NCBI GenBank assembly: GCA_963665115.1
Contig: OY762007.1
Coordinates: 1,184,001-1,248,000 of the forward strand
Direction of reading: 5' to 3'
Source of the DNA: an uncultured Rivularia sp.
GTDB taxonomy: Bacteria; Cyanobacteriota; Cyanobacteriia; Cyanobacteriales; Nostocaceae
DNA: 64,000 nucleotides
Shown here: in pieces, positions 15,848-60,924 of the stretch
How the letters are laid out: each line of letters begins with the position of its first letter
Position numbering within the stretch: position 1 is the first letter of the stretch
The notes under the pieces: generated by a model
Database searches by the model: none
Told to the model about the DNA's origin: nothing
What the model saw: the letters and a program-made list of their open reading frames with translations, nothing else
Made by a program: the position numbers and the translations under genes

Positions 15848-16616
15848 CTACCTATTTTCCCCAAGAATGGGTTTGTTCGATAAGTGTTGCAAGCCAACAT
15901 TATTTAATAGCTGCAACCAATCTCTAGCAAGAGTCTTATTCTGGGGATTTTCTCGACGAAGTTTGACTAATTCTGTTAAAGCTGAATACCAAATACCATT
16001 CTGAGCGTAAAAAGCAACTCGCTGACGGGGAGAAGCTACGCCACTTAATTGCTTTTGCTGGTTTGGTTGTAGGGCTACTCTTCGCACCCATCCGCGCACG
16101 TAAATAGGAGTAGTTGATTTATCGCGATCGCAATACAGTTTAAAATACCACTGGTAGGTTTTATCAATTTCTAAAGATTGCCCGGAAGCAAGACTAACAC
16201 CAACAATTCCTTCACCTTTATTTATCGGGAAATCGGGTCCGATATACATCATTATCAGCTTCATCTTGCAAGACAAATTCTCCTTTGGGTATCTTGCTCG
16301 ATTTATAAGGAATAAATAACCAAAATGTCGGATTAGATCCTACTACTTTACCAACTTGCTTTTCTGGAATTAAAGCAGTCAGCGGCATATCTGTAGCAGG
16401 ACAATCGTTACGGCTCCCCATTCCTCTTCTTTTCGTTGGTCTTCCTCGATTATCTCCACTTTGCTGCTTTTTTTTTTGCTGTATTTGGATTTTGGGAGCA
16501 TTTCTACTAATTTGGCTTTGTGATGCTGTTACTGGTTCATACCAACTTAAATTAGTCAACGTTAATAAGGGAATAATGCTAAATCTAGTTAGGTTTAATA
16601 TTTTATTTTTCATCAT
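15848..16616 (-). CDS. DUF928 domain protein with signal peptide (~255 aa), +1 frameshift at 16235-16237
   Basis: GSRNDC, LTALIP, PTFWLFIPY, YQWYF, NGIWY motifs across the two ORFs; removing one base fuses them. Confidence 0.8.
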
Positions 16617-17092: not shown

Positions 17093-17293
17093 TATTTAGT
17101 TATTTAGTTATTTAGTTTACTTAAATGACTTTTTGGATAATATTCTGTTCTTTTAAAGGAAAAACTGCATAAATTTGTTTGAGGGGCACCTATATAGTGA
17201 GTAGAAGGATGGAGAAAGTTTTTTCATCTTCTGCAATTCAATTTTGCTGCAAAACAAAGTTCAAAAGTTTAGCGATTAGTAAGGATAAAAACC

Positions 17294-17647
17294 ATGAGCT
17301 TACAAGAAAATCAACCAAAATCAGAAACCACGGTTAATGAACAGTTAGAACAACTAAAAGATAAAATTGTTGATGCCCTCAGCAAGGCAATTAAAGATCC
17401 TGATATAGTCAATTCCATTGAGCAAGAGGATGGTTTACTAAAAAAATTAGTCAATGCTAAGTTTGTAATAGATTTGAATAAATTAAAGAAGAACGAAAAC
17501 TTAGAAATATGCTTACAAAATGAGCTTGATTTTAAGGAACCATCACCTAATGTACTCAACAATTGTGAATGTCAGTATATGGGAGAAACAGTAACATGTT
17601 GTGCATATAACAATCAGTTGTTCATCTTTATGTATGGAAAAAATTGA
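17294..17647 (+). CDS. Small protein with helical leader-like N-terminus and Cys-rich C-terminus
   Basis: AAGGA RBS; C-terminal CECQYMGETVTCCAY; followed by a terminator-like hairpin. Confidence 0.7.
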   Translation: MSLQENQPKSETTVNEQLEQLKDKIVDALSKAIKDPDIVNSIEQEDGLLKKLVNAKFVIDLNKLKKNENLEICLQNELDFKEPSPNVLNNCECQYMGETVTCCAYNNQLFIFMYGKN

Positions 17648-17835: not shown

Positions 17836-20137
17836 GTGAAAATTTCGAGGCATTGCTTCCAAAAAATTGCAGTTGCAATATTTTCGATTATCGCATTCTA
17901 CCCTAATGCTAATGCTCAAATCGTTCCTGATACAACTTTACCGAATAATTCGAGCGTAACTTCACAAGATAACATCAAACTGATTGAAGGTGGAACTCAA
18001 GCACAAACTAATCTATTTCATAGTTTTGAAGAGTTTTCCGTGCCTACTAATTCAACAGCATATTTTAACAATACAGCAAATATTCAAAATATTATTACCC
18101 GCATTACAGGAAAGTCTATCTCTAATATTGATGGCAAACTTCGTGCTAACGGTACGGCAAATTTATTTTTAATTAATCCTAATGGAATTGTTTTTAGCGA
18201 GAATGCTGCTTTAGATATTGGTGGTTCGTTTTTCGCAACTACCGCAAGTACTATTAACTTTACTGACGGTACAAAATTTAGCGCTACACAACCCCAAACA
18301 AAACCACTTTTAACTATAAATGTTCCTGCTGGGTTGCAATTTGGCACAACATCTGCATCCATCCGCAATCAATCCAAAGCTACTATTGATAATGCAAATA
18401 ATACATTTATACGACCTACGGGTTTACAAGTATCTACAGGCAAAACTTTAGCGTTGATTGGCGGTGATGTAATATTAGAAGGTGGCAATTTGAGCGTAGA
18501 TTCAGGACTAATTGAATTAGCTGCTGTTGCTAGTAATAGTTTAGTGAATCTCAACTCAACTGATAAAGGTTGGTTTTTAGGGTATGAAGGTGTAGATAAT
18601 TTTAGGAATATTCAACTAATTCAACGTAATGCTGATGGTTCAAAGATACAATCTTCTATAGAAGTTCGTAACAACGTAAACAGTGGTAACATTCAAATAC
18701 GAGGTGCAAAAGTTGAATTAATTGGTTTTAATATTATAAACCTAATTAATCAAATCGATCGAGATATTATCGATAATGGTAATTTGAATATTGATGCAAA
18801 CAAATTAGTTGCCCGAGATGGGGCACAAATAAGAAGTTCTAATAATGGCAACAGTTTCGGGGCAAATATAACAGTAAATGCCTCCGATTCGGTAGAAATC
18901 ATTGGTGGTTTTATTAGTCCCATTGGTTATATTTCTACTGCTTTGACTAGTAATACTGTCGCAGTTGGGAAAGCAGGTAATATTAACATTAACACCAGCA
19001 GAATGTTAATCCAAGATGGAGCCACTATCGGCGCTAACTCTATTGGTAAGAAATCGCAAAACTCTCAATTTTTTGCAGCTACAGGAGTAGCAGGAAATTT
19101 AACAGTAAATGCTTCTGATTCGGTAGAATTAATTGGCAGCTTTGAAACATATCCGAGCAGTTTGACTGCAAGTTCATTAGGTTTCACAAATGCGGGAAAT
19201 TTAACTATTTCCACAAAGCAATTAATTGTTAGAGATCGATCTGAAATTAGTGTCAGTAGCTTATTCACCCAAATTCCACAAAATGTAACTGTCATCGGCA
19301 ATGTAAGTAATATAGGAAATGCAGGAGAAACTCAGAATCACTGCCGATTCTATACTTTTAGATCGCCAAGGCAAGATAATTTCTGAAACCGACTCAGCAA
19401 ACGGAGGCAATATCAATCTTCAGTTAAAAGATTTATTATTAATGCGTCGCAACAGTCGAATTTCTACTAATGCAGGGAAAGCAGAATTTCTAGGTGATGG
19501 TGGTAATATCAGTATTAATATTCCCAATGGTTTCATAGTTGCCATACCTGAAGAAAACAGCGATATCACTGCGAATGCTTTTACTGGTAATGGTGGAAAA
19601 GTTGATATTAATGCTGTTGGTATTTTCGGCATTCAACCCCGCAGTCGAGATGAATTAACAGAACTTTTATCTCCTCAAAACCCCAGCGAATTAAATCCCC
19701 AAGAACTTTTAACCAGCGATATTACAGCAATTTCTCAGCAAAATCCAAATTTAAACGGTGAATTAAATATTATTGCAACTGATGTGGAACCGACAAGACA
19801 ATTAGTGGAATTACCAGAGATACCAGTTGATACGAAAGTTTCTCAAGTTTGCAGATTTCGTAGAGGTAATCAAAGCGAATTTGTCTTTTCTAGACGTGGT
19901 GGTTTACCTCCTTTACCAAGTGAAGCTTTGAGGGAGGATTCTGCTTTGGGTGTTGGTTGGGTGGAGGGAGAGATGGGGAGAAGAATCCAAAATCTAAAAT
20001 CTAAAATCCAAAATAGAAGAATTCAAAATCCAATTGTTGAAGCTACAGGTTTGGTTAAAGATGAAAATGGCGATATCTTGTTTGTTGCCGAGCAACCTTC
20101 TAAAAGTAGCGATAATTTTAAGAGGTTTGGTTGTTAA
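17836..20137 (+). CDS. Filamentous haemagglutinin-family TpsA exoprotein (~766 aa), +1 frameshift at 19328-19330
   Basis: Signal peptide, NLFHSFEEF and NLFLINPNGI TPS motifs, G.AGNI.I beta-helix repeats, SDITANAF and GGLPP C-terminal motifs. Confidence 0.85.
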
Positions 20138-20595: not shown

Positions 20596-22959
20596 TTAAA
20601 TTAGTTTTTTTAGTCTGTAGGTTGCAATGCTACCGCTACCAGCCATCAAAGCAAACACTGAAGGAATAAAGGGTATCCAACCACCTTGAATTAATATTGT
20701 ATAGCAAAGAAAATATAATACAATTTGGGTTAAGCCTAAAGTTAATGCTAATTGCAAGGATGATTTACTTTTCCAAGCTAGCATTCCGCCAACTATTGCC
20801 CAACAGTAAATCCAAAGTGCTTCTGTCCATTTTGACCATACCCATAATAATGGTCTATTATCAAGCACTGCGCTAAGAATTTGACTTACCATATGTGCGT
20901 GTATAACTACCCCCGAAGTTTTCTTTTGTGGAGATGTGGCAGCACTATAGGATGTTGACCAATAATTATTAAAGCTTTGGGCGGTTGTGCCAATAATCAC
21001 AATTTTATCTCGAACTAAATCGGGTTTAATTTTATTGTTAAGCACGTCTTGAAGGGTAACATGGGTTGCAACTTCCCTTGTAGAACGCCAATTTAACATT
21101 ATTTGATAGCCGAGACTATCGATATTACTGTAACTACCGCTATTATCTTCTAAATATGGCAGAACAAAATTATTACCTGATTTGGGGTTTTCTTCTGGAT
21201 TGAGTTTGAATTCTCTGTTTTCTTGAGCTAAGTAACGCTCTGCTAATTGAAAGCTAAAGGATTTGTCGGTATTGCAAGGTTGTGCCGGAGTCATCGCTAA
21301 TAAATGACGGCGTAGAATTCCGTCCGAATCTTCTACAACGTCAGTAAAACCCAAATTTTGTGGGGATTCTGGAGGTGATGGTACGCCGGGGTTTTCATCT
21401 CCTTCGCTGACTTGACAAACTCCAATAAATTTGGAACTTGTTTTCATCCATTTAGCTAAATTTGCATATTTGGGTTTAACGGGATTATCTCGATAAATAT
21501 TTAAACCGATGATGCGGGGGTTATATTTTTCTAATTTATCGATCAATTTTGCTAAAGCGCCATCGGAAATTGACGCAGCACCTCTTTCATCGGCATTCTG
21601 TGCCTGTACATCTGGCTCAGTAATTTTTACGATCAAAATGCGATTATCTTTGCCTTCATCGGGACGCGATCGCATCATACTGTCAAATGCTCTAAGCTCC
21701 CAATGCTCTAATAATCCGAAACTTCGCGCTCCCACAATTGCTGTTGCGATCGCCAAACCAGCGCTTAAAACTACAGGTATAATTTGACGCAGATTTACGT
21801 GATGATTATTAAGTGTTTGCGAGTATTGAATGGGATTAGACCAAACTAAAGGTGCTTCGGTAGGATTTTGACATATCACTGGCAACCAACTTGCACAGGG
21901 AAATTCTGCTTCTAAACCTTGCAATTTTTCCCCAGCTTCGCGTACTGCCCGATAAAATGATTTAGATTCGGAAAAACCTGATAGGAAAAACTGTAAAAAT
22001 CTTTGTGCGACTAAATCCGGTACGGGTTCGCGCATGACAATCATTTGCGGTATATGTAATGAAGTTAATTGCGTTGCTAATCCCAAACCATCGCAAGAAT
22101 TAAAGATTGCTAACCGTAACCCCCGCGATATTGCCGCTCTCAAACCGTTTTTTAATTGCTCGATTGTTAAACTATCATCTCTGTTAATATAAATTCGCCC
22201 ACTTTCTCCATTTCCTTGACTCGAACTATGTCCGGCAAAAAATAAGATATCCCATCCTCTTTCATCCCACAGCATCAAATCTAATTCTTGACGCTGAGCT
22301 TCTACTAAAAAAATTGTTTCCGCACCAGGTAAATTTTCTAATATTAATCTATCTTCTTGAATATCAATATTTTCGCTATGACCTAATATTGCTAATATTC
22401 TGATTTTATCTCTGAATGGTTTGTAGCTGCTTTCTAACCGTTCAAAATCCAATTTACTCAAACAGAAAACAGCATTTGGGTAATCATCAAAAAAGTCCCA
22501 TAAGTTCCAAGGTAATCGCCGTATCTCATCTAAATCTGTTTGAATAATTACCTGAATCTCTTCGCTAGGATTTAATTTTGTGCGTAATTTTTGTTCTAAA
22601 TTAACAAAAGTAGGGCAGTTGAGCCAAGTATTAAACTTATTTTTTAAATTTTCACATAAATTATGAAATTCAACCGATGAAATATTAGTTACATCTTCTG
22701 AATCAATTTCAATTTCATCATCCGATTCATATTGCTGTCGCCAAGTCAAATCAGGAATCAAAGAATCATAAAGCAAATTGTAAAGAATCTGCCAGCGTGT
22801 ATAAAGTTGGGTAAGCTCTGGTGCCGCAGGTAAACTTCCAGTAAACTGAATGGGGAAAAGATTTACGTCTCCATCGCGCTCGTAAATTTGAGCGATCGCA
22901 CTATCAAATCCCTCTTGTAAGCTACCTTTTCCCAGATTTAATACGACTAATTTACTCAT
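20596..22959 (-). CDS. CHAT protease - TM - CHASE2 sensor - 3TM protein
   Basis: ILFFAGHS (His) and LAIFNSCDG (Cys) dyad; CHASE2 motifs D.DGILRR, IVIIGTTA, SGVVIHAHMVSQI. Confidence 0.88.
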   Translation of the reverse strand: MSKLVVLNLGKGSLQEGFDSAIAQIYERDGDVNLFPIQFTGSLPAAPELTQLYTRWQILYNLLYDSLIPDLTWRQQYESDDEIEIDSEDVTNISSVEFHNLCENLKNKFNTWLNCPTFVNLEQKLRTKLNPSEEIQVIIQTDLDEIRRLPWNLWDFFDDYPNAVFCLSKLDFERLESSYKPFRDKIRILAILGHSENIDIQEDRLILENLPGAETIFLVEAQRQELDLMLWDERGWDILFFAGHSSSQGNGESGRIYINRDDSLTIEQLKNGLRAAISRGLRLAIFNSCDGLGLATQLTSLHIPQMIVMREPVPDLVAQRFLQFFLSGFSESKSFYRAVREAGEKLQGLEAEFPCASWLPVICQNPTEAPLVWSNPIQYSQTLNNHHVNLRQIIPVVLSAGLAIATAIVGARSFGLLEHWELRAFDSMMRSRPDEGKDNRILIVKITEPDVQAQNADERGAASISDGALAKLIDKLEKYNPRIIGLNIYRDNPVKPKYANLAKWMKTSSKFIGVCQVSEGDENPGVPSPPESPQNLGFTDVVEDSDGILRRHLLAMTPAQPCNTDKSFSFQLAERYLAQENREFKLNPEENPKSGNNFVLPYLEDNSGSYSNIDSLGYQIMLNWRSTREVATHVTLQDVLNNKIKPDLVRDKIVIIGTTAQSFNNYWSTSYSAATSPQKKTSGVVIHAHMVSQILSAVLDNRPLLWVWSKWTEALWIYCWAIVGGMLAWKSKSSLQLALTLGLTQIVLYFLCYTILIQGGWIPFIPSVFALMAGSGSIATYRLKKLI

Positions 22960-23136
22960 ATTTCCGAGCAGGTAAACCTTTCGAGTATAAAATTATATTT
23001 TATTTTGACATCTTTGGGGGCTACTTAAATATTAAACAATTCTGTTTTTATAGTACGACTCCTTGAGCAAATATAGAATCTGTACCAAAAAAATGCTACC
23101 CAAATTACTAGCTGAATCTACTTGTTACTCATGCTT

Positions 23137-24384
23137 CTAAGCAAGCCCCTCAATGACAAAATTCTCTTTGATTTTAATATCCTTGCAAGCTACTTGAATA
23201 CTAAAATATTTACCGAGGGGTAGTTTGAATCGTTTCAATTGAATGTAATTATCGTAACTTCTAGATTCGACAGATTGTAAAGCATTTCCAGATTCGGAAA
23301 GCAAAGTTAATTGCACGTTGTCTGGTAAATAACTTTCCCCGGAAGCTGGATAAAGCTGCACTCGGATACCGACTTTGTTATCAACTTGCGGTGATAAACC
23401 AATTAATAAAGCCACTGATTTACTCTCTAACTGCATCCCCAAATCAATAAGTTTGGCTCCTTTAACACAAACTTCATTTAAAACCGAATCGCTTCTGAAT
23501 TGAAAAGTTCTCGTATCAGTTAAGCCGAATAAATCATCAACAGAACGCCAACCTTCATGAAAAATATTTTCAAACCACGAACTCAAATTATGTACGACTT
23601 TTTGGCTGTTTTCCATAAAATTAACTTGTGAATTTTTTATCCTCTGGTTGTACAAAATAGTACGATATTTTTGCGCCGATAAGATTGCTCCCCATTCTGA
23701 AAATTTCATATATAAGCGAGGTGAATAAACAGTCGGCTTGCTTAATTTTTCTATAATTTGCTTTGCTTGAAACTCCGATAAACTTGGCAAAGTTTGCACT
23801 TGTGGTTGTTCGAGAGTACAAAGCTCCTGGGCAACCCACATAATATCAATATCCGCAATCAAATCGCGGTTGCTTACACAATAAGTTCTATCCATTGAAT
23901 CATATTGTGCTTTTTCACGAATTTGCTGATGGCTAATAAAACCCCAAATTCTTAACCAACCCTCCTCAACATTTAACTGTACCTTCATATAATAATTAGC
24001 AGCCCAATTAGGGATATCAACCCATTCTTGGGGAATGCGAAATTCAGTTGGATAGCTTTGTTCATTTGGAACTAAAACCAATCGAGAACGATCGAAGTTT
24101 AAATCAATTCCATTCACAAATTCACATTGCCGAAATGAATCTTCAGATAGCTCGGGTATCTGCAATTTTTCTAGTAAATCCGGTTCATTCTTTAACAATT
24201 TGACAAAAGTATTTAAACACAAGCGATTTACAAAAACCCTATTTACTTCGGCATCATTTCGATAGTTCTCTTTTACAGTTTGTTGCCATGCTATTTCTCG
24301 TTCTTTAGCTGAAAAATCTACCCATAAATATTCGTGGTAAATTTCTCTCAAATCATCAAATTGCAACATATGACTATTAATCAT
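23137..24384 (-). CDS. DUF1822 family protein
   Basis: VNGI, FRIPQEWVDIPNWAANYY, NLSSWFENIFHEGW, GAKLIDLG, YLPDNVQL motifs. Confidence 0.85.
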   Translation of the reverse strand: MINSHMLQFDDLREIYHEYLWVDFSAKEREIAWQQTVKENYRNDAEVNRVFVNRLCLNTFVKLLKNEPDLLEKLQIPELSEDSFRQCEFVNGIDLNFDRSRLVLVPNEQSYPTEFRIPQEWVDIPNWAANYYMKVQLNVEEGWLRIWGFISHQQIREKAQYDSMDRTYCVSNRDLIADIDIMWVAQELCTLEQPQVQTLPSLSEFQAKQIIEKLSKPTVYSPRLYMKFSEWGAILSAQKYRTILYNQRIKNSQVNFMENSQKVVHNLSSWFENIFHEGWRSVDDLFGLTDTRTFQFRSDSVLNEVCVKGAKLIDLGMQLESKSVALLIGLSPQVDNKVGIRVQLYPASGESYLPDNVQLTLLSESGNALQSVESRSYDNYIQLKRFKLPLGKYFSIQVACKDIKIKENFVIEGLA

Positions 24385-24393
24385 TTTAAAAAA

Positions 24394-25923
24394 TTATCCT
24401 TGTTTTAGCTGTATCCATCGATCTACCACATCAACTATTTTGGCATTTACCACAGATAGCGAATCTCTTTGTAAACACATAGTCCTTTCCACGTACTGTT
24501 TGAAACACTCTAAGAATCTAAGCTTTACCGCTGCTGATTCATTTAATTCTTTTAAATCATTATTATAATCTTTAACAATGAAGCTGTTTGGAGATTTAAT
24601 ACTAATAAATATACTTGTTTGTTCTTCATAACTAAACTGTTTAATAATTTCATCCAATATAGAAAAAATCAGTTGCTGGCAATAAAGCTGTAAGCATTTG
24701 TCCAAAGCAGATTTTATTCTTTCAATATCTTTTTCATTATTAAGATAGATATCTGGATTCGTTTTATTCCATTCCGAGGCAAACTCCTTTATAATAGTTC
24801 TACTATATTTTTTTAACTGACGGGCTACTTGATACTGCTTTTGTAAATCAGAATATTTATATTTAAGAAGATTGGCTATTTCAGTTTGAGTTAAATTTAA
24901 GCCCTGCCATAATTTGAAAATCATTTGACATAATTCTGGCATACTCGTAAATAATTTATCAAAAATCGTTTCTAGGTTTTGAAATTCTTCCTGCTGTATT
25001 AATACATCCCATCTAGAAGGTGCGGGATTTGATAAACCGTAATAATCTTCCTCAAAATATAAATATTCCTTGTTACGGTAATTTTTAGCTGCTTTTATAC
25101 AAGTTGAAAGCATTTCTAAAATTGCAATCTTTGTTGCAGGTGGAGAATTAATATTAAATTGATTGCATCGTTGATTATAATAACTAGCAATTTCCGTCAA
25201 TTCATCATGTGAAGGTTTTTGCGCCGAACCCGAACGGCTAGGTGTCATGTGAAAAAGTTCATTAAAACATTGCCAAGCTAAGCGATGTGAAACAACTTGT
25301 TGAGCCGGAATTTGCGCGACTAAAGCATCATTTAATTCTCCAGCACTTAAATCTTTCAATAAACCGTAACTTGAAAATCTTGTTCTTCTCGCTTCCAAAT
25401 CTTGTCGATAGATTTGGTTGCGAATAAATCTTTTAAAAGCAGTTATCGCGTATGCTTCTATATTTATTTGATTACGCTCAAAATTAAAATTATTAAAAAA
25501 CTTGCGTGGTGAATTTGCGGCGATATTTGCTATTTGAAAAAATTCTTCTAAAGAATATTTATGTTTGATATACTTAAATTCATGATGTATATCTTTTGCT
25601 GCTTTAAAACAGGCTTCTTGCAAATAAGCAGAAAAATGTTTTTTAGCCGTAGAGCAACAGCAATCTGGATTAAATTGACGTAAACTTTGATTATTCGACT
25701 GCTCTTGGATAAGTAAAGCTTTTAAAAAATATTGTGCCCAAAAACTTTCCTTAGCATCTGGATCTGCTTCTACTTTTGATCTCATATTTTTTTCAAGCGG
25801 TGCATCGTGCTTCCAACTCAATTGAATTTGAGAATTGTTGGCTGTAAAACAGATAAAGCTAGAAAACTTATCAACTAAATTCTTACGTTTTTTTACAAGC
25901 ATTGATTTTTCCAAAAACATCAA
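24394..25923 (-). CDS. Sigma-70-like / HTH transcriptional regulator
   Basis: Helical protein with region-4-like LNLTQTEIANLL...QYQVARQL; 9 bp upstream of DUF1822. Confidence 0.65.
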   Translation of the reverse strand: MMFLEKSMLVKKRKNLVDKFSSFICFTANNSQIQLSWKHDAPLEKNMRSKVEADPDAKESFWAQYFLKALLIQEQSNNQSLRQFNPDCCCSTAKKHFSAYLQEACFKAAKDIHHEFKYIKHKYSLEEFFQIANIAANSPRKFFNNFNFERNQINIEAYAITAFKRFIRNQIYRQDLEARRTRFSSYGLLKDLSAGELNDALVAQIPAQQVVSHRLAWQCFNELFHMTPSRSGSAQKPSHDELTEIASYYNQRCNQFNINSPPATKIAILEMLSTCIKAAKNYRNKEYLYFEEDYYGLSNPAPSRWDVLIQQEEFQNLETIFDKLFTSMPELCQMIFKLWQGLNLTQTEIANLLKYKYSDLQKQYQVARQLKKYSRTIIKEFASEWNKTNPDIYLNNEKDIERIKSALDKCLQLYCQQLIFSILDEIIKQFSYEEQTSIFISIKSPNSFIVKDYNNDLKELNESAAVKLRFLECFKQYVERTMCLQRDSLSVVNAKIVDVVDRWIQLKQG

Positions 25924-26247
25924 ACTTCACCATAGAGCCATTTAAATTTTTGCTTCTCCTATATTTATTGATATACAAAGCATCAAATTAACATTTAATT
26001 CATAGAAGTTAACAATTACTTACTGTACTTCGCACGCTCGCCAAGCGTTACATATATTTATGGGCACCCAGATAAATCGGTTATGCAGTTTTAAAGAATT
26101 TTTCTCAAAACAGATCGAATATCAAGCTAAAACTCCGTGCAACCATCGGTGTTTTTTTGAAATAACTGTAGTTAAGTAAAATTATTCGTCTCGATTTCTT
26201 TGATGCTGCCAAAGTTGCTAATTCTTTTAACCCGTCTGGTTTTGAAT

Positions 26248-26275
26248 AAAAAAACCGCTATCTGATGATAGCGGT
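26248..26275 (-). terminator. Rho-independent terminator
   Basis: ACCGCTATC/GATAGCGGT stem with a T-run on the minus strand. Confidence 0.65.
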
Positions 26276-26480: not shown

Positions 26481-27308
26481 TTATTCTCCGTAATAGTCAA
26501 CCGAGCCGTAATCATACAGTACATCACCGAGAGTGCTATTCATGCTGCCTTCGATTGAAAGCTGAAGAGGTAATAATGCGTCACCCACAGCTGTATTTTG
26601 TGGAGTTTCTTTTTCAACAACTCCTAACCAACCAGTATCATCGTATTCAACATCAACTAATTCCCATCCTTGATTCGCGAATTTTTGTCGAAAATTTCCT
26701 ACAAGTTCATCAAAAGTATCTCCGCCGATTGCACCACTTGTAATACTAGAATCTTGTTGAAAAGTTCCAAACCAAATACCATCACCGTATTCAATATCAA
26801 TTAAGTCATATCCGTTATTCGACATATTTTGAATATCTTCTTTAAATTCACCATTACTACTAGCTGTTTCATAAGCATTAAGCCCAGGAACATCACTAAA
26901 AGTTCCAAACCAGATACCATCACCGTATTCAACATCAACTAATTCATATCCTTGATTCCATAACTGCGAAATATCTTGTGTAAGTTCGGTAAGACTATTT
27001 GCGATGCTATAGTTGTTAGCACCAGAATTTTCTTCAAAAGTTCCAAACCAGACACCATCATCGCCGTATTCAACGTCAGTTAAGCGATATCCTCCTACTT
27101 GCCACTGTTGTTGAACTATTTGTCCGAGTTCCGAAGCACTGCTTGCAGGGGCAAAACCAGTATTATTAGGTGTGTCTTGATACGATGCAATCCATTTACC
27201 GTCACCATATGTAGTACCGATTAAATCATATCCTTCACTCAAACTTACTAGTATTCCTTGTTGAAATTCCTCAAGATTTTCGCTGATAGAGTAAACATTA
27301 TTAGCCAT
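26481..27308 (-). CDS. Acidic protein of five ~49-aa repeats
   Basis: Five copies of GYxLxDVEYGDGxWFGTF. Confidence 0.8.
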   Translation of the reverse strand: MANNVYSISENLEEFQQGILVSLSEGYDLIGTTYGDGKWIASYQDTPNNTGFAPASSASELGQIVQQQWQVGGYRLTDVEYGDDGVWFGTFEENSGANNYSIANSLTELTQDISQLWNQGYELVDVEYGDGIWFGTFSDVPGLNAYETASSNGEFKEDIQNMSNNGYDLIDIEYGDGIWFGTFQQDSSITSGAIGGDTFDELVGNFRQKFANQGWELVDVEYDDTGWLGVVEKETPQNTAVGDALLPLQLSIEGSMNSTLGDVLYDYGSVDYYGE

Positions 27309-30943: not shown

Positions 30944-33164
30944 CCCACATTCCGCACCCTAAGTTTCAGAGGTAGGCGAAAACAGATTATTTAGTACTTT
31001 GATACTACTAGTTACAAGTTTTAAAAAGGAACTATTAATAATAAATTGCATTAGTGTTGATACATAGTTACTAAAAAGATTTTGAGGATAAATGCTTTCT
31101 TGAAGTTACATGAAAGAGTAAAAATAATTTATAACGAACAAAAAATGTCAAAATGAAAGCAGAAATCTCCCCCCGCCAGTTCTGTCTGCCATGTTTGATA
31201 TTAAAGACGTTGAAATAAAGAACATAGACCATTTGGGTATAGTAGCAGGGATAATAGATTCGATTGGGTTAGTAGAAATAATTAACGAGTCCATCGGTGT
31301 AAATGAAAACGAAAAAGTTAATGCTGGACAAGTTGTAAAAGCAATGATTTTAAATGGCTTAGGATTTGTTTCTAAGCCTTTATATATGTTTCCCAAATAC
31401 TTTGAGTCAATCCCTTGCGAGCATTTAATAGGTTCTGGAGTAAAAGCAGAATACTTAAATGACGATAAACTCGGTAGAGTAATGGATAAATTATTTATTA
31501 AAGGGCTTGATTCAATATTTTTGTCAATTACTTTAAATGTCATTAAAAAATTCAAAATATCTTTATCGACATCACATTTAGACTCATCATCTATGCACTT
31601 ACATGGAGAACATAATTCAAGCTTACCTGAAGTAGTATTTGATTCTCAAAAGGTAGAAAATAACGATCTGGAAGAAGAACTAAAAACTAAATCATTACAA
31701 CCAATAAATATTACATACGGATACTCTCGCGACCATAGACCAGATTTGAAGCAATTTTTAATAGAACTAATATGTAGTGATGATGGAGATATACCAATAT
31801 TCTTGAAATCAGCATCTGGTAATATTGTTGATTCTTCATGTTTTGGTCAAATTTTAGTTGATTATAAAAAACAACTACAAGTTGATAGTTTAATGGTTGC
31901 TGATTGTGCGCTATATACAGAACAAAATATCAAATTAATGTCAGAGATGAAGTGGCTATGTCGAGTACCTTTGAGTATTAAAGAAGCAAAGTTATTAACA
32001 TCAACGTTACCCTTGGCAGAATTTATTAAAAGTAAGTTATCGGGATATTCATATGTTGCGAAAAAAATTACTTATGCAGGTATAGAGCAACGATGGTTAG
32101 TTGTACAGAGCCAAGAAAGAAGGAAATCTGACTTACAGAAATTATCACAGAAACTGTATAAGAATGAAGAAAAAATTAAAAGTGAGTTAAAAAAGTTATC
32201 GAAAGAAAAATTCGCTTGTGAGGCTGATGCAATTAAAGAATTATCGAAATTATCTAAAAAGTTCAAATATCATCAAATAAATAAAATTTCTGTAATTGAA
32301 CATACACAAAATTCGGGAAAACAAGAAAAGTTTTATCAAGTATCAGCAACAATTATAGAGGATAAAGATAAAATTAATCCCTCAATCTTGAGCGCAGGAA
32401 GATTTATAATTGCGACGAATATCTTAGAAGAAGCTGAACTTGATAATACTTCTATGATTTACAAGTATAAAGCACAGCAATCTTGTGAGCGTGGATTTAG
32501 CTTTCTTAAAGACCCACTATTTTTTGCTGATAGTATTTACTTAAAAACACCTGAAAGAATTGAAGCATTGGCAATGATAATGGGTTTATGCTTACTAGTT
32601 TATAAGCTTGCACAAAGGCAATTAAGGCTTGCTTTGTATGAGTCGCATTTAAAAATCAAAAATCAGTTAGGTAAACCCACAGATTCTCCAACATTAAAAT
32701 GGATATTTCAATGTTTTCAATCAATTCATGTTGTTGAATTTAATAATCAAAAGCAAGTTTCTAATTGGAACGAAGAAAGAGATTTTATTCTGAAATTATT
32801 ACCTAACCATTGTCTATCTTATTATAGTTTTATTACATAAAAATAAAATAATTTTTACAATTTTATAGCCATACAAGTTATTTCCATGTTTTGTTGATAG
32901 CTTATTGATAGTCATGTCTCATTTTATCTTTGAAATCCAGATATATAAGTTATTACCTTGCCAAATACAATTTAATATAGATTTTTATCTATCAGACTCA
33001 AAGATAGATGTTTTTCATCACTATTGTTTGTTATTGAGAATTACTATGATGCCTTTTTCTCAAGATATTCGTGCTATTAAACGACGACAAGTGATTTTTT
33101 ATTCTTTATAGATAGATTTATCTCAGTAATTACCGATTACGACAACTTGGGTGCGGAATGTGGG
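30944..33164 (+). mobile_element. IS1634-family insertion sequence, intact
   Basis: 16-bp perfect TIR CCCACATTCCGCACCC; 6-bp target duplication CTATAA (30938-30943 and 33165-33170). Confidence 0.9.
31191..32840 (+). CDS. IS1634-family DDE transposase
   Basis: DHLGIVAG, LNDDKLGR, HLDSSS, GYSRDHRPDLKQ, VADCALY, YKAQQSCERGFSFLK motifs. Confidence 0.92.
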   Translation: MFDIKDVEIKNIDHLGIVAGIIDSIGLVEIINESIGVNENEKVNAGQVVKAMILNGLGFVSKPLYMFPKYFESIPCEHLIGSGVKAEYLNDDKLGRVMDKLFIKGLDSIFLSITLNVIKKFKISLSTSHLDSSSMHLHGEHNSSLPEVVFDSQKVENNDLEEELKTKSLQPINITYGYSRDHRPDLKQFLIELICSDDGDIPIFLKSASGNIVDSSCFGQILVDYKKQLQVDSLMVADCALYTEQNIKLMSEMKWLCRVPLSIKEAKLLTSTLPLAEFIKSKLSGYSYVAKKITYAGIEQRWLVVQSQERRKSDLQKLSQKLYKNEEKIKSELKKLSKEKFACEADAIKELSKLSKKFKYHQINKISVIEHTQNSGKQEKFYQVSATIIEDKDKINPSILSAGRFIIATNILEEAELDNTSMIYKYKAQQSCERGFSFLKDPLFFADSIYLKTPERIEALAMIMGLCLLVYKLAQRQLRLALYESHLKIKNQLGKPTDSPTLKWIFQCFQSIHVVEFNNQKQVSNWNEERDFILKLLPNHCLSYYSFIT

Positions 33165-34776: not shown

Positions 34777-37468
34777 ATGAAAACCAAAAATAAGCATTTC
34801 AAATTTTTACAAATTCTATTCTTCGCAACTTTGATAATTTGTATATCTTTTGGACAGGTTGTTACGGCGCAAAATCCTAATATCAATTTATTAGTTGAGA
34901 GGGGAATTAAAGATTACAATACAGGCAATTTTCTTAGTGCAGTTGAAAACTGGCAACAAGCATTAACTGAGTATAAAAATCAAAAGAATCCTTCTGCAAC
35001 GGCTGTCATAAATGAAAATTTAGGACGTGCTTATCAAAAATTAGGAGAAAATCAAGCTGCAATTACATCGCTTTCGGCGGCAATTCGCGACTATCAAGCG
35101 GTTAAAAATGTGCCGCAAGTGGGAAGAATGCGGACGGAATTAGCTCAAGTTTATAGTAATTTGGGACAACCTCAAAAAGCGATCGCTCTATTGTGTGGCA
35201 AAGGGGGGGAAGGCATTGAGCTTGAATGCATTCGGGAAAGTGCCGTACAAATTGCCAGTAAATATAATGACAAAGACGGTAAAGTTGCAGCTTTTGGGGT
35301 TTTGGGTGAAGTATATCGGTTAATCGGAAATTACGATCGAGCAATCGCTTATTTACAAGCAGCCCAAAAGGAAATTCCAGATAACTTTTTAGTTTTAAAT
35401 AGCCTGGGTAATGCTCACATAAATCGCGCTCAATTACGAGAATTGCAGGCAAAATCGGCTGCTAAAATTGGACTTGATGACAAAGAAACCGAATTTAATC
35501 GAAAGTCATCGGCAGATTTTAATCAAGCTAGCGAATATTTTCAGAGTAGTATCAAATTTGCTCGCGATGCAAAACAAAGTTTAGCAGAGATGCGCGGATT
35601 TTTGAATTTAATTAAGTTGGCTTCTCATACAGATAAAACGAAAATTATCGATGATGCGGCGTTTAATAATGCTGTTGGAAATGCTTTAAAGCTGCTCGAA
35701 AATTTACCAGATTCAGAAACAAAGGTTTATGGAGCTATCGATTTAGCATATTTACAACGGAATTCTCCTTTCAATTCACCCTTTACCAATTGTCCCAACT
35801 CAATTAGTTTTACCAGAAAAAGCATTAAGTTTGCTGCAAAAATCTGTTTTAACTAGCAATAATTTAAAAGATAATCGCTTGCAATCCTATGCTAACGGTG
35901 CTTTAGGACATTTTTGGGAATGCCGTCAAAATAGCCAGAAAGCGTTAACGTATACCCAAAATGCAATTGTGGCAGCAGATAGCAAGTTGAGTGCAAAAGA
36001 TAGTTTGTATTTGTGGGAGTGGCAAGCCGGAAGAATTTTAGACGAGCAAAAGCAGAAGAAACAAGCGATAGAATCCTATCAAAGAGCATTTGAAACTTTA
36101 GAAGATATCCGCCAAGATATTTTGACAGCGAAACGAGATGTACAGTTTGACTTCCGCGATGTTGTCCGACCATTGTATCGCACCTTAGCAAAATCACGAT
36201 TGGAATTATTGCAAGCTGGAGCAATTGCAAACAAGCAACGTGACGAAGAATTATCGAAAGTTGTAAAAACCATCGATGCTTTGAAACTGGCAGAATTGCA
36301 AAATTATTTTGGTAACGACTGCGTTTTAAGCGGGTTGAATCCTAAACAGGTGGACGAACTTTTGCAAGATAAAGATAATAGTGCGAAGTTTAAAAATACG
36401 GTGTTTTTAAGTTCAATAATTTTGGATGGCAAAACCGGAATACTATTACAATCAGCCGATAAAGCAACCAAGTTTAAGTGGATTGAAGATTCCCAACAAC
36501 AAGGTACAGATAAAATAGTTAGCAGCAAAAAGTTAGAAATAAAAATTGCCGAATTTCGCCAAGGGTTAGTTAACGGAAGAGTTGCACTTAACTACGATAC
36601 AACAACCGCAGCACAACTTTATGATTGGATAATTCGTCCCTTTGCTGAAGACATCAAAGCAGAGGAAGTTAAAACTTTGGTGTTTATCCAAGATGGATTT
36701 TTACGTAGCGTGCCAATGGCAGCACTTTACGACAGTCAGCAACAAAAATATTTAGTTGAAACCTACGCAATTGCCACAACTCCCAGCTTACGATTGACAG
36801 TTACTAAACCAAACCGCAGCAAACACAAAGCATTAATTTTAGGTTTAACAGAAAAATCGACAATCGACGGAAAGATTTTTCCCGAGCTTGCTTCAGTTGA
36901 AAATGAAATTAGCGCAGTTAAAAAACAACTTCCCAATCATACCGAATTAATCAACGAGAATTTTCTCCCCGAAAACTTCCAGCAAAAACTTCAGCAAACA
37001 ACATATCCCATCGTACACATTGCCAGTCACGCTCAATTCGGAATTATTCCCGAAGACACCTTCATAGTCACGGGTAAAAACAAAAAACTCACCATCAGTC
37101 AATTAGAAAACTCATTGCAAAACCTTAAAAATCGATCGGATAGCGTTGATTTGCTCGCACTTACAGCTTGTCAAACCGCCCTTGGTGACGAGCGAGCCAC
37201 CTTGGGATTAGCTGGAGTAGCATTACAAGTCGGAGTTAAAAGTGCAGTTGCATCGTTATGGAATATCCAAGATATATCAACATCCAAACTGGTAGAAGAA
37301 TTTTACAAAAACTACCGCGAAGGGGGAATGAGTATTGCTCAAGCATTGCAAAAAGCCCAAAGAAAAATGATTAACGCCAAAAAATTACCACCATCAGAAG
37401 ACATTGAAATCAATTATGATAATCCCGCACATTGGGCACCGATGATTGTGATTGGTAATTGGTTGTAA
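34777..37468 (+). CDS. Secreted/membrane TPR-CHAT protease (~896 aa), +1 frameshift at 35794-35796
   Basis: Signal peptide, TPR helices, WEWQAGR, LAELQNYFG, IVHIASHA (His), LTACQTA (Cys), PAHWAPMIVIGNWL. Confidence 0.85.
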
Positions 37469-37576
37469 TTGTAGGTTGGGGGCAACAAAAATCGGTTTTA
37501 ATTCAATATTAAACTTTGCCTCGTAACCCAACATCTCGATTATCGGAATTTTATTTATTAATGTTGGGTTAAATTT

Positions 37577-37747
37577 ACATCTTGCACCATTCTCAACAAC
37601 CGCCTTGGAATAAATTCCCAGGCTCATAAGCAAAGTCGTCTGAAGACGACTAGATAAGACTTTTAGCGCGTTTTAACTTTGTATATTAACCTTGAAATTC
37701 CCAACCGAGGCGGGTATTTGGGCTAATCGCGAATGGTGCAAGATATC
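37577..37747. mobile_element. MITE (same family as 4168-4417)
   Basis: ACATCTTGCACC / GGTGCAAGATATC terminal inverted repeats. Confidence 0.7.
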
Positions 37748-37767
37748 ATGCTATTAATTACAATTAT

Positions 37768-38496
37768 CTACAAACTATCCCGCGAAATCTTCTCAAGATA
37801 TTCAACTCGTTGTTTAATAATTATGTTACTACTTTCACTTTCTGTCGGCATTTCTGACTCTGCTAATTCTTGCACTAAAACTGACCCAATTTTACCCAAA
37901 TTACCATTTTCTTCTATTTTTAATGCTTCTTCAAGTGCTTCATACCACAATTCATTTTCAGCATAATAATTAACGCTTTCAGGAATGGTAGTAAATTTAT
38001 TTTTCGCCAGCGATTGAGGATTAATAACTGTAAATTCTGCACGCTTGACAATAGGATAGCTTCCGCAGTTAAGTGAAATTTGCCATAAGTATGTTTTACC
38101 CACCGAAAGCTCGGCGTAATCGGTAGGAAGTTTTAATTTATTGATTCCTACTACCGATGGTATTTCTTTAAATTCACCGATTTGTTTAACTTGCGTGGCT
38201 GATTCAAATTCAAAAAGTCGAAATTGCACATTTTTAGTACTCGATGAATACCAAGCCAACATTGGACGTAATGAAGCAGTTTTTCCGATAAATGGTTTAG
38301 GTGCAAGCAGCGTCAAAGGAATACTACCATTACTACCACATCCACGGGAGCCACCACCACGAGAATATCCACTCGCAGGTTTGCGATTCTTCGGCTTATA
38401 TTTAGCGTAGGCTGGAACTGCGGTAATCAAGAAAAGCATTCCAATAATTAAGCTGGCAATGCGACGATTCCGCCAAAACGTTGATTGATTGTTCAC
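37768..38496 (-). CDS. DUF928 domain protein
   Basis: Signal peptide, GGSRGC, LTLLAP, YLWQISL, YAENELWYEAL. Confidence 0.85.
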   Translation of the reverse strand: MNNQSTFWRNRRIASLIIGMLFLITAVPAYAKYKPKNRKPASGYSRGGGSRGCGSNGSIPLTLLAPKPFIGKTASLRPMLAWYSSSTKNVQFRLFEFESATQVKQIGEFKEIPSVVGINKLKLPTDYAELSVGKTYLWQISLNCGSYPIVKRAEFTVINPQSLAKNKFTTIPESVNYYAENELWYEALEEALKIEENGNLGKIGSVLVQELAESEMPTESESSNIIIKQRVEYLEKISRDSL

Positions 38497-38608
38497 AATA
38501 ATTACTGTTTACTATATAGCTTTCAAGAAATAGACAAGAAAAATATAGTACAGGTTACAAAAATTTATAAATCTTTAAGAATAGTTTTAATATTTAGGAT
38601 ATCTTAAA

Positions 38609-40481
38609 TTATTTTATCGGTGTCCAACTAAGTTCGCATATTGTGCCTTTCGGGGAAATAGATTCTCGTTTAAACTCTCCTCCTAACTGTTTGGCAAGAA
38701 TTTTACAGTTTTTTGTACCTTTATTTTCCTGCGTAGATTTAATTCCAGTTTCCGTTATCTTTCACCCACAATTTATATTTATGCGGAGAATATTCACCCG
38801 ATGCTTGAACCCGCTTTACCCCTTCGGCGTGTTTGCCAACGTTACACAATGCCTCTTCCAAAAACAAACAGATGCTGCGTTTTTTTTCTCTGTTTAAATA
38901 TTTATCATCAATTGGATCGAAGTTGCGAATTTTAACTCTTAATGTTTGAAAATATTCAAAATCGTTACGTTCCAAAGTACTTGAATAAACTTCGTATAAT
39001 AAATCGTGAAGCGGGCGATTCAAATCTAAAATTAATCCACTTCCCAAACGTAAAACTTCTTCATTTGCTAATGCTTCTAGCTGAAGAAAATCGCCGATGG
39101 CTCTAATTTCTTTGTCAAGCTTTTCAAATTGCTCGACTAGTTTGTCTTGAGGAATATCTTGAGCGCGGATATGCTTTAATCCATAAGCAAGGGTTTGCAA
39201 AGGACCATTATGAATTACAGTGAAAGTATATTTAATCGTGCTGAGACGTTCGTTAATTTGCGAACGCAAAAATTTATCGTGCTGGTAAAATGCAAAAGCA
39301 CTCAAGCTAACTCCATTTAATATCAGTAAATTTGGTACTATGGGAATCCATATACCCCACCACCACAGCATTAGATAACCGAAGCTAAACAAACCAATTC
39401 CTGCTACAGCAACACTAAGTAAATTTGTCCAGACAGATTGGGTAAGTCTTCCCAGGAGAATCGGCACAAAACCCCACATAACAATCCATATGTACTCGCT
39501 TGCATCTCCCCAACTACTTAACATTGGGCGACTATCGATGACAGCACTGAGAATTTCGCTAACGGCATGAGCGTGATAGTCAACTCCATAAATTTGACCT
39601 TTTATTCCTGATATTGGCAAAGCAAATGTATAAAAAATATCGCCAGCGCTCATATTCCGATTGCCTATTAAGATAATGCGATCGCGCAACAATTTCGCAT
39701 CGACTTTATTATTCAAAACATCCCGCAGCGACACAACATGAAAAGGTTTGCGACTGTTGCGAAAGTTGATTAAAGTTGACAATCCACCGTCATCAATATC
39801 AATATATCCGCCAAAATTTTTAGTAATTTGCGGTAATTCCTTTCCACGAATCATGATAGCGTTAGGATCTTTTATTCCGGTTTCCAAATCAGTTCCTTCC
39901 GCACCAAAATACTGAATAACTAATTGCAACCCCAAAGAGAATTTATCTGACTCGATATTTTTCGGGTTAGATGTATACAACAAATAGCGGCGATTTTTAC
40001 TATCCCCATCAATACGTAAATCGGCAAATCCAATTTGTTCGGGTGATAAACTTTTATGCGGAGGAATTTCTCCTGGTGGTAAAATTTTTTCAATACCAAT
40101 AATGTTAGTATTTTTCTTTAATACCCGCGCTAGTTGTTCGCTACCGGGTTCAACCGGAACATTTTTGAACAAATCCAAACCAATTGCTCGCGGTTGATAA
40201 GTTTCCAGCTTGTTGAGTAACTCTGCAATCTTGCCATCGGGAATCGGATATTTACCAACAAATTCAATATCCTGTTCGTCAATTCCCACAATTATTACAC
40301 GCTCATCAACCTTTTCTACCGGACGTAAACGCAACATTGTATCCAAGAGCATCCATTCCAAAGGCTGCATTCCTCCGGTTATGCGGATTAACATCACCAC
40401 AATCAGCACCATCATTCCTGGAGGTGCAGCCCGCAACCATAACTCTAATTCTTTACTAATGCGACTCCAAATTCTCCTCAT
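38609..40481 (-). CDS. CHASE2 sensor histidine kinase (~623 aa), +1 frameshift at 38749-38751
   Basis: CHASE2 + 3 TM, IHNGPLQ His-box, EEALCNVGKHA. The corrected frame restores VKDNGTG...GT...LGG HATPase motifs. Confidence 0.82.
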
Positions 40482-40501
40482 CTTGCCGATTAATCCCCGT
40501 A

Positions 40502-41230
40502 TTAATCAATTAAACCTTCTTCGCGGGCACGAATTTCGGTTTGGATTCGCAGATTCTTACCACTTTGCTTGCAGTCTTCAGGGTATACCTCTAAAACATC
40601 CTGAATCTTTGTCCAGTAAGTCCGTACTGCCCGTTCCGATTTATACATTCTTTTGGCAATTTCCTTATCAGTCAAACCTTCTTCAAAAGCGAATCGTAAA
40701 ACATCCACCCATTCCGGTTTTAATTCGATTCCCGTTTTAATATCTTTTGTATGAGTCGCACCGCCAAGCGTCAAATTAACTCGCATTAACATTTCATCTT
40801 CAGGTAATCCTTTGTCTGCGATGGCAAATCCACCTTGATGATTATCAATCTCGTGCTTAATGCGGATTAACGCTTTGACATAACTGGTTTGCACAATAAA
40901 ATTTTGATGGGGATATTCTGCAAGCAAAGTTTGTAAAAGTTGAATTCCCGTTTCAATTTCTGCTCTCTCGCCCAAAGTATTAGGAATCGACAAATCCATT
41001 ACAACTAAATCTAAATAAGAAGATTGAATTAAAGATAATGTCTCCTGTTTTGTTTGAGCCTTAACAATATCCGCTTCCGGATACTTTCGACGTAACACAT
41101 CCAGAGTACCAGTTAAAATTAATTGATGGTCGTCCACAACAAGAATGCCTAGTTTTTTTTCCACTGGCAAGCTCCCATAAACTTGGTGTTCTTTGAAATT
41201 ATAAATTACCATAACTTTATTCTCATTCAT
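40502..41230 (-). CDS. NarL/LuxR-type response regulator
   Basis: VVDDH, VMDL receiver; GLTDKEIAKRMYKSERAVR HTH. Confidence 0.88.
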   Translation of the reverse strand: MNENKVMVIYNFKEHQVYGSLPVEKKLGILVVDDHQLILTGTLDVLRRKYPEADIVKAQTKQETLSLIQSSYLDLVVMDLSIPNTLGERAEIETGIQLLQTLLAEYPHQNFIVQTSYVKALIRIKHEIDNHQGGFAIADKGLPEDEMLMRVNLTLGGATHTKDIKTGIELKPEWVDVLRFAFEEGLTDKEIAKRMYKSERAVRTYWTKIQDVLEVYPEDCKQSGKNLRIQTEIRAREEGLID

Positions 41231-59857: not shown

Positions 59858-60901
59858 TTACAAGACAAACTCTTCCGTAACCACAGCATCTTGATAAATG
59901 GCTTCCACTTTAAACTGTTTACCAGCAGCTTCGCTAAATGCTAACTGAATAATTTGGTCGGATTCTCTAGCAATCGCCGATTCACTTTCTGGTTCATCAG
60001 TATTATAATTCAGCGTTACTTTCAGTTGCAAACCTTGTGGTAAACAATATTCATTTTGAGAACGAATTTGTGCAAGTACACCTATCTCTTGATTTTCTTC
60101 AAGTCTCATATTAATTGTTAATGCAAAGCGCTGATTATTTAGTAATAATCCAAAGTCAAATAATTTACCCCTTCTAACTGCAAAATCAGATGACTGAGTA
60201 TTTCTTCTGGTTGCACTTGCATAACTAAGATTAGGCATTTGTGGTGTTAAAATATTTTCAATAGATTGCCAACTTTCTTCAAATAATCCACTCCACCATT
60301 GAGAAAGATTAACAAGGGATTGAGTAACTTTGTGAGGAATATTTTCTGCTGATTTAGGTAAAGGAATAGCTTCTATTTCCAGAAAGCGAATATATAAGAA
60401 TAAATTGTTCACTTCACTATCAAAGCTAGAAAGCGGAATTTTACAAATCTCAGAGTTTTGACTTGGAGATAATTCATCATGTCGTATTATTCCATGAATT
60501 GTTAACTGTTCGGCTTCTTCTAAAATTTCAACTAATACATAGAAGTGAGCAGCAAGTTGTGGTGATATGATATTTTCTTGATGAATAGAAACTAAATTGT
60601 CATAAAGACTATCTACAGTAATTAGTTGAACCTTAAATTCACCAACTTGTAAATTAACGTTCTTCTGTTGAGAATCTGCATCGAGTTGCTTAACTTCGAT
60701 ATCTGGGATTTGTTCTTGTAACCATTCTTCAAAACCGAATAAAGCTAGTTGATTTAAATAAACTCTCCATTGATTTTTCTCACCATCAATATTTTGACTA
60801 ATATTGATAGCTTTCTCATAATGTTCTGGTTCTAAACAAGCAATCCTTGGTTTAATTCGTTGGCTAAAATCTTGTTCTGCTTGTAAGGATAATCTAGTCA
60901 T
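59858..60901 (-). CDS. DUF1822 family protein
   Basis: AAHFYVLVE, NLSQWWSGLFEESW, RGKLFDFG, LPQGLQL motifs; homologous to 23137-24384. Confidence 0.82.
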   Translation of the reverse strand: MTRLSLQAEQDFSQRIKPRIACLEPEHYEKAINISQNIDGEKNQWRVYLNQLALFGFEEWLQEQIPDIEVKQLDADSQQKNVNLQVGEFKVQLITVDSLYDNLVSIHQENIISPQLAAHFYVLVEILEEAEQLTIHGIIRHDELSPSQNSEICKIPLSSFDSEVNNLFLYIRFLEIEAIPLPKSAENIPHKVTQSLVNLSQWWSGLFEESWQSIENILTPQMPNLSYASATRRNTQSSDFAVRRGKLFDFGLLLNNQRFALTINMRLEENQEIGVLAQIRSQNEYCLPQGLQLKVTLNYNTDEPESESAIARESDQIIQLAFSEAAGKQFKVEAIYQDAVVTEEFVL

Positions 60902-60924
60902 GGTGTTTTTATATATGATTATTT

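Follow-up and report, generated by a model that had tools for sequence, protein, structure and literature searches.

We describe here a three-gene locus of an uncultured Rivularia sp. (assembly GCA_963665115.1, contig OY762007.1) that encodes a sigma-70-family protein, a DUF1822 protein and a receptor protease, in which an EACC2 domain and a CHAT domain of caspase fold are joined through a transmembrane (TM) segment to a CHASE2 sensor. The window, that is the whole stretch of DNA analysed, comprises 64,000 nt (1,184,001-1,248,000), and coordinates below are positions within it. The locus would most likely work like the HetF-PatU3-HetZ system without being its ortholog, and a cleavage-controlled release of the sigma factor from its anti-sigma factor, with activation through the sensor, has in our judgement a slightly better than even chance of being correct. 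An earlier note on this DNA had put the module forward as a new candidate; the gene set was, however, already described computationally in 2021 (PMC8195603), and the interpretation given in that note is, as a whole, partly supported. What this analysis adds is a predicted site of cleavage, a separation of roles within DUF1822 and a candidate target promoter, which make the mechanism testable.

The locus and its three genes

The following genes form the locus (ORF, open reading frame):

24394..25923, minus strand, sigma-70-family gene (509-aa ORF)
23137..24384, minus strand, DUF1822 gene (415-aa ORF), predicted anti-sigma factor or adaptor
20596..22959, minus strand, receptor protease gene, EACC2-CHAT-TM-CHASE2-3TM (787-aa ORF)

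As the earlier note had it, the three genes are co-oriented and DUF1822 begins 9 bp downstream of the sigma gene; the gap between DUF1822 and the protease gene is 177 bp. We confirmed that all three are intact in independent contigs. Single contigs of X1 and X3 extend over all three genes and the region ahead of them and are identical to the window there, and the X4 contig differs by 48 substitutions and no gaps, with 22 synonymous changes among the 34 substitutions listed inside the genes. When one genome was scanned for each species, eight close orthologous loci came up, including Rivularia and Calothrix. The order sigma, DUF1822, EACC2-CHAT-CHASE2 is kept in seven of them (two of these frameshifted), and the eighth retains just DUF1822 and a remnant of CHASE2.

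The receptor protease

The protease can be divided into these parts:

22435..22959, minus strand, EACC2-type N-terminal domain (aa 1-175), constant ahead of the caspase clade; name from PMC8195603
21835..22434, minus strand, CHAT/caspase-fold domain (His244 codon 22228-22230, Cys289 codon 22093-22095)
21718..21792, minus strand, TM1 (aa 390-414, hydropathy scan), joining protease to sensor
20785..21747, minus strand, CHASE2 extracytoplasmic sensor region (aa 405-725, Pfam match)

Pfam matches CHAT (PF12770, above cut-off) with E 8e-13 and CHASE2 with E 1.9e-68. The catalytic dyad that the earlier note saw in the AGHS and NSCDG motifs corresponds to H244 and C289, which 70 of 70 homologues share without exception; the TM connection to CHASE2 that it described was found as the hydrophobic segment 390-414. 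A second hydrophobic stretch lies at 734-773, and the C-terminus ends without a further output domain; the predicted topology would place CHAT on the cytoplasmic side. EACC2, left unnamed before, is a separate conserved domain of about 175 residues ahead of CHAT. In an hhalign comparison the CHAT domain matches the hetF-like protein of the genome with probability 99 and E 4.6e-18; we take the latter to be hetF-like from its CHAT match, length, TM and N-terminus rather than from a HetF model. Judged from its sequence, the protease is a clan CD peptidase of the CHAT/HetF group, with a caspase-haemoglobinase fold and a His-Cys dyad. Residues 1-375 are kept as a unit in paralogues that carry CHASE2, PBP, nSTAND1 (STAND-WD40) or CVNH C-termini. 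We know of no ligand of CHASE2.

The sigma-70-family protein

The true start of the sigma protein is likely the ATG at 25902, because it matches the orthologue at locus L044. Its predicted layout comprises an N-terminal extension, sigma2 (about aa 91-182), a helical insert, sigma4 (about aa 312-385) and a C-terminal extension. The earlier description of this gene as HTH/sigma-like was borne out by a profile built from 46 relatives, which matches sigma2 and sigma4 of SigF (1l0o) with E 2.9e-8 and likewise matches FliA. A paralogue in L014 reaches 101 bits against TIGR02937, above the cut-off, whereas a Pfam scan of the window protein gave no match; single-sequence searches of the PDB with the sigma, DUF1822 and protease proteins gave nothing significant. 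The AlphaFold model (pLDDT 80, pTM 0.47) is mainly helical; additional segments precede sigma2, separate it from sigma4 and follow sigma4, an arrangement reminiscent of HetZ with its three insertions (PMC13342950).

Identity with HetZ was considered and rejected. The profile comparison with HetZ gives a probability of 36 and aligns across sigma4 and the tail alone, the HetZ model NF037963 matches four places in the genome, none of them at the window sigma gene, and the true hetZ of the genome is located elsewhere and followed by patU. A search of the PDB copy used returned no HetZ chain. Because the alignment is so limited and the true hetZ lies elsewhere, we assign the protein to the sigma-70 family and not to HetZ, the family profile covering both sigma2 and sigma4. 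Holoenzyme formation and transcription initiation would be expected of such a protein.

DUF1822 as a putative cleavable anti-sigma factor

The 415-aa protein matches Pfam DUF1822 with E 1.5e-80, and its model suggests four parts:

aa 20-188, alpha/beta N-domain
aa 204-285, helical part
aa 288-299, low-confidence linker
aa 307-410, Ig-like beta-sandwich
23494..23496, minus strand, codon of Arg297 (F-R/S), the predicted P1 cleavage residue, from linker conservation

The pLDDT of the model is 87 overall and below 50 in the linker. Foldseek returned generic Ig-like folds alone, and a short helical insert occurs in part of the family. Kaur et al. (2021; PMC8195603) label DUF1822 a TPR protein; we rejected this assignment, the model showing an alpha/beta domain, helices and a beta-sandwich instead. 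Within the linker, the column of R297 holds Arg in 86 of 100 homologues and has a conservation of 0.85, compared to 0.48 for the next best column.

The two halves of DUF1822 vary with different partners. Among 12 paralogous cassettes, the similarity of the sigma proteins follows that of the DUF1822 N-part (rho 0.65) and not that of its last 110 aa (rho -0.10). For 39 adjacent triplets, from which eight close orthologues were left out, the correlation of sigma is 0.79 with the N-part and 0.27 with the C-part, while the caspase correlates with the C-part given the N-part (0.28) and not with the N-part given sigma (-0.05), and EACC2 correlates at 0.49 with the C-part and 0.21 with the N-part. It is the contrast between the two halves that is the informative part of this analysis. 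In five orthologues the best conserved parts include CHAT (92-97%) and also the beta-sandwich (89-97%). The co-variation and the conserved linker Arg thus lend indirect support to the idea that DUF1822 may be a cleavable anti-sigma factor.

The same two-faced co-variation would also result if sensing led to self-cleavage of the receptor, with DUF1822 as an uncut adaptor or scaffold that relays to sigma. Autopeptidase activation with a sigma output was proposed by Kaur et al. (2021; PMC8195603, section 9), and the aligned Arg is missing in 12 EACC2-linked DUF1822 proteins, as such a scheme would allow. We nevertheless consider it unlikely: it leaves the lone conserved Arg in a variable, disordered linker unexplained, as well as the pairing of DUF1822 with unrelated metacaspases and TPR-CHAT proteases, both without EACC2, and the homologous HetF cuts its partner in trans (PMC9457339).

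The beta-domain was found on a different N-terminus in L142, and the source data of Kaur et al. (PMC8195603) include 21 DUF1822-annotated proteins of 188-511 aa with TRADD-N, several of them beside EACC2-caspases. Both may fit a constant protease-facing tag. No fusion of DUF1822 parts to the protease or to sigma was found in the fetched loci or in the own genome.

Linkage of the three families across genomes

The genome encodes 12 DUF1822 genes, all with a co-oriented upstream gene; 11 of these upstream genes fall into three clusters and one is an HTH-ended singleton. TIGR02937 directly matches four of the 11 upstream genes other than that of the window, and sigma clusters 2 and 0 are linked with a probability of 98. 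A caspase-fold gene lies within about 5 kb of 11 of the 12 DUF1822 genes.

The neighbourhood survey that the earlier note had called for extends this linkage of the three families to other genomes. Its 80 loci were drawn from the best 146 matches outside the own genome (298 weaker ones lie beyond these); 16 matches near a contig start were dropped and the remainder was sampled evenly. The upstream gene belongs to the three sigma-like clusters in 64 of the 80 loci, to small other clusters in six and is a 900-aa gene in five, and five loci have none. A caspase-fold protease from one of three clades is found within 5 kb in 63 loci: 50 EACC2-caspases (31 with CHASE2), eight C14 metacaspases and five other CHAT proteins, compared to a CHAT match in 5% of random 11-kb windows of the Rivularia genome. 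A DUF928 gene comes immediately after the protease gene in 20 of 28 CHASE2-type cases and in 0 of 17 cases of other types; since it follows CHASE2-type genes alone, it goes with the sensor.

C14 metacaspases that replace CHAT beside sigma-DUF1822 pairs were seen at L013:11267-13408, L081, L084, L086-L088, L099, L102 and L104. Both the His and the Cys motif are present in eight of the nine members of this clade, and the linker of their DUF1822 partners has Ala before the Arg.

In the phylum as a whole, DUF1822 was matched in 211 of 301 sampled genomes, about half of the matches being weak, N-domain-only and from one small-genome family. In such small-genome relatives (L037-L041, from G252, G158, G274, G172 and G258) the N-domain alone starts long acidic proteins, and in L037 an HxxxCxxC motif and a TM segment come after it. 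We take HxxxCxxC to be the zinc anti-sigma signature. Neither sigma nor protease was seen near N-domain-only genes in two 3-kb loci.

A candidate target promoter

Two copies of a spaced motif lie in the window:

26059..26088, minus strand, candidate autoregulated promoter CTGCATAA-N16-CCCATA, upstream of the sigma gene
17165..17194, plus strand, second motif copy, ahead of a 117-aa Cys-tailed ORF and a TPS exoprotein gene (candidate targets)

Some 135 bp ahead of the sigma ORF lies a block that is conserved in eight of eight aligned upstream regions. The pattern YTGCATAA-N15/16-CCYATA has 15 sites in the genome, 14 of them intergenic, and at most one at any other spacing from 5 to 34. Seven of the 15 sites (six of 14 without the founding site) are within 7 kb of a DUF1822 gene, an area that makes up 1.9% of the genome. 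In 41 genomes of the family, with totals summed over per-genome tables, there are 120 sites in 32 genomes, compared to eight sites in seven genomes at a control spacing and 13 sites when the pattern is read backwards. Of 29 first sites in other genomes, four are at a sigma gene of the same cluster, one precedes a metacaspase gene and one a TPS gene. The spaced motif is real; as an autoregulated promoter read by the window sigma it is a candidate, and the genome encodes seven long sigmas of clusters 0 and 2. Scans for sigma-70 consensus promoters and for terminators gave results at chance level, and a literature search for the TGCATAA motif with a cyanobacterial sigma factor or promoter returned nothing relevant by titles and abstract starts. 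In one genome of the family (G501) we observed 26 motif copies, some of which form pairs separated by about 250 bp, while five share a single contig; this suggests either a much expanded regulon or an association with mobile elements.

The genes downstream of the motif encode largely secreted or surface proteins and no known defence genes. This bears on a role in conflict or cell death, where the protease would be an effector that cuts host or invader proteins and the sigma-DUF1822 pair would be co-regulated but mechanistically separate. STAND-fused paralogues exist, Kaur et al. (2021; PMC8195603) use a counter-invader framing, and four of 16 EACC2-caspase-type matches (L024, L025, L026 and L027) have no DUF1822 in the fetched region. 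The content of the motif genes nevertheless argues against such a role, as does the DUF1822 beta-domain, which tracks the protease and not sigma, so that we hold it to be very unlikely.

Proposed mechanism and its weak points

According to the mechanism that we favour, cleavage-controlled release of sigma, the N-domain and helical part of DUF1822 would hold sigma inactive, while the beta-sandwich would dock on the EACC2-CHAT module and thereby present the linker. A periplasmic cue, possibly via DUF928, would pass through TM1 and switch the protease, which would cut DUF1822 after Arg297. This cut, with further breakdown by general proteolysis probably coming after it in the way suggested for PatU3 and Csx30, would free sigma for transcription from YTGCATAA-N15/16-CCYATA promoters, namely its own and those of nearby secreted-protein genes. 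The weakest steps are the transmission of the cue via CHASE2 and TM1 and the reading of the motif promoters by sigma.

The same cut could also serve opposite or constitutive control, in which a protease active by default keeps DUF1822 low and is dampened by CHASE2 occupancy, localisation or DUF928; a signal would then turn sigma off or just tune it. Nothing in the present analysis fixes the sign of control, and the Anabaena system offers a precedent: PatU3 is undetectable in the wild type under constant HetF pressure, and a soluble HetF-CHAT without TM and periplasmic part complements the mutant (PMC9457339). However, the fusion of the EACC2-caspase to PBP, STAND-WD40, CHASE2 and CVNH sensors fits signal-dependent activation, and the apparently autoregulated promoter fits an inducible positive loop. 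We regard this variant as quite unlikely.

Several observations weigh against cleavage-controlled release with sensor activation, beginning with the fact that we infer binding, cleavage, ligand gating and sigma activity. The window sigma scores 39.5 bits against TIGR02937, under the cut-off of 42.9, and carries a 6-aa insertion in the HTH turn of sigma4 that its clade shares. The Foldseek check of the sigma fold proposed in the earlier note gave a weak result: sigma factors rank high, but at E values of 0.1 or worse. Arg is absent from the aligned column in 14 of 100 DUF1822 proteins, of which 12 are EACC2-linked, and the P2 residue (Phe in 36 of the 53 proteins linked to EACC2, Ala in nine of nine linked to metacaspases) is confounded with clade. 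The p-values of the co-variation (permutation p 2e-4 for sigma and the N-part in the 12 cassettes, p 0.005 for the caspase and the C-part given the N-part in the triplets) ignore kinship, and co-duplication of adjacent genes can produce the correlation of sigma with the N-part without contact. Alignment of DUF1822 with PatU by hhalign gives probabilities of 0.4-7%, one comparison reaching 1% with E 0.056, which is not significant. No caspase-fold gene lies within 5 kb at 17 of the 80 surveyed loci. With respect to the promoter, 23 of the 29 first sites elsewhere have no module gene within 1.5 kb, the strict motif occurs at none of the 80 survey loci, and the relaxed motif is found upstream of the three sigma clusters in 4/40, 0/26 and 3/9 cases.

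Neighbouring genes in the window

Two further features surround the second motif copy:

15848..16616, minus strand, DUF928 gene, split in the assembly, candidate accessory partner of CHASE2
17294-17647, plus strand, 117-aa ORF (acidic helical body conserved, Cys-rich C-terminus hypervariable)

The frameshifts at 16235 in the DUF928 gene and at 19328 in the TPS gene (17836-20137) are one-base assembly errors, because contigs of three runs (16235) and two runs (19328) lack the base in question; further split genes of the genome may be errors as well. The 117-aa ORF sits behind the motif copy and directly before the TPS exoprotein gene in seven relatives and in L161. It matched no Pfam or NCBIfam family, and its product looks like a peptide precursor. 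As a general part of the module the Cys-tailed peptide was rejected, its profile matching two of 151 genomes of the order, and CHASE2-type loci show no enrichment of similar small ORFs.

Directly upstream of the sigma gene, 26481-27308 (minus strand) encodes a 275-aa acidic protein with repeated 'DVEYGDGxWF' units that matched no family significantly; a terminator-like hairpin follows this gene at 26254-26275. A second sigma and DUF1822 cassette (cluster 2) lies at 59858-62496 on the minus strand, divergent from an EACC2-CHAT-nSTAND1 gene past the window end. The same island holds, at 34777-41230, a two-piece TPR-CHAT gene, DUF928, a CHASE2 protein and a response regulator, close to a transposase-like DUF4277 gene at 31191-32840.

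Comparison with known systems

By its architecture, from which the EACC2 identity is taken, the locus is an EACC2-caspase/sigma/DUF1822 system of the type catalogued computationally by Kaur et al. (2021, eLife; PMC8195603), where EACC2-caspase genes stand beside ECF sigma and DUF1822 genes. Both share a constant EACC2 and caspase part, a variable C-terminal sensor and neighbouring sigma and DUF1822 genes, and EACC2+CASPASE+CHASE2+TM architectures are contained in the source data of Figure 3 (PMC8195603). The term anti-sigma does not occur in that paper, and its passages on these systems contain no cut site, anti-sigma role or promoter (PMC8195603). In the literature naming the family, searched with coverage of few subscription journals, we found no test of DUF1822 function; PMC9679502 mentions it in a variant table alone.

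Type III-E CASP systems show a similar division of labour. The protease Csx29 cleaves the anti-sigma factor Csx30 and recognises its C-terminal domain, and the N-part of Csx30 binds sigma while the C-part binds the CHAT protease, a two-part layout to which that of DUF1822 can be likened; the CASP locus also has autoregulated promoter motifs, as in the candidate here (Strecker et al., 2022; PMC10028731). In contrast, the type III-E trigger is target RNA via Cas7-11, and Csx30 has no essential P1 residue (PMC10028731). Membership in this group was rejected: none of the 29 window ORFs scanned matched a cas family, and no Csx30 chain appears among the listed Foldseek matches of DUF1822 or in the PDB profile search.

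HetF-PatU3-HetZ of heterocyst-forming cyanobacteria is an analogue that has been studied by experiment. In that system HetF cuts the cytoplasmic inhibitor PatU3 between R117 and S118 (Xing et al., 2022; PMC9457339), and HetZ is a sigma factor with three insertions that is inhibited by PatU3 (Hu et al., 2026; PMC13342950). The window shares with it a homologous membrane CHAT protease with a periplasmic part, an insertion-bearing sigma directly upstream of the gene for the, here predicted, inhibitor, and an Arg before Ser as the predicted cut, R297-S298 of DUF1822 being the putative counterpart. There are also differences. The genome has its own hetZ, patU and hetF elsewhere; the window protease is adjacent and carries EACC2 and CHASE2, whereas the hetF-like gene is unlinked and encodes a TM and a TPR-type tail; and the match of sigma to HetZ is as weak as given above.

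A relationship between DUF1822 and PatU is suggestive, not significant. In PatU, too, an Arg is invariant (R188, 30 of 30) within a comparable linker ahead of a beta-rich end; by motif and distance from the C-terminus this Arg probably corresponds to R117, the HetF site of PatU3. The DUF1822 beta-domain scores 19.4 against PatU, above all 64 decoys (best 17.5), in an overall weak match, and a global profile alignment, itself weak, sets R297 in register with R188. In the Atlas the first non-DUF1822 cluster is 'putative PatU' (0.81), a lead alone, and a search for PatU with the DUF1822 HMM did not find it (best E >4). It is a tentative and rather doubtful extension that DUF1822 and PatU are homologous caspase-cleavable anti-sigma adaptors and that HetF-PatU3-HetZ is an offshoot of a cyanobacteria-wide plug-and-play family. 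Interchangeable sensor-caspases of three protease clades, in up to a dozen cassettes per genome, would then cut tagged anti-sigma factors after a conserved Arg, and the CHASE2/DUF928 version would read a secreted cue; its regulon, under YTGCATAA-N15/16-CCYATA, would comprise exoproteins and a hypervariable peptide with a Cys tail, which might itself be the signal. If the favoured mechanism holds, caspase-like receptors would provide multicellular cyanobacteria with a large transmembrane path to transcription that needs no phosphotransfer, and the heterocyst switch would have many relatives. The predicted cut at R297-S298, a C289A exchange, the domain split and the promoter all suit an E. coli system that has been published and uses cyanobacterial RNA polymerase (PMC13342950).

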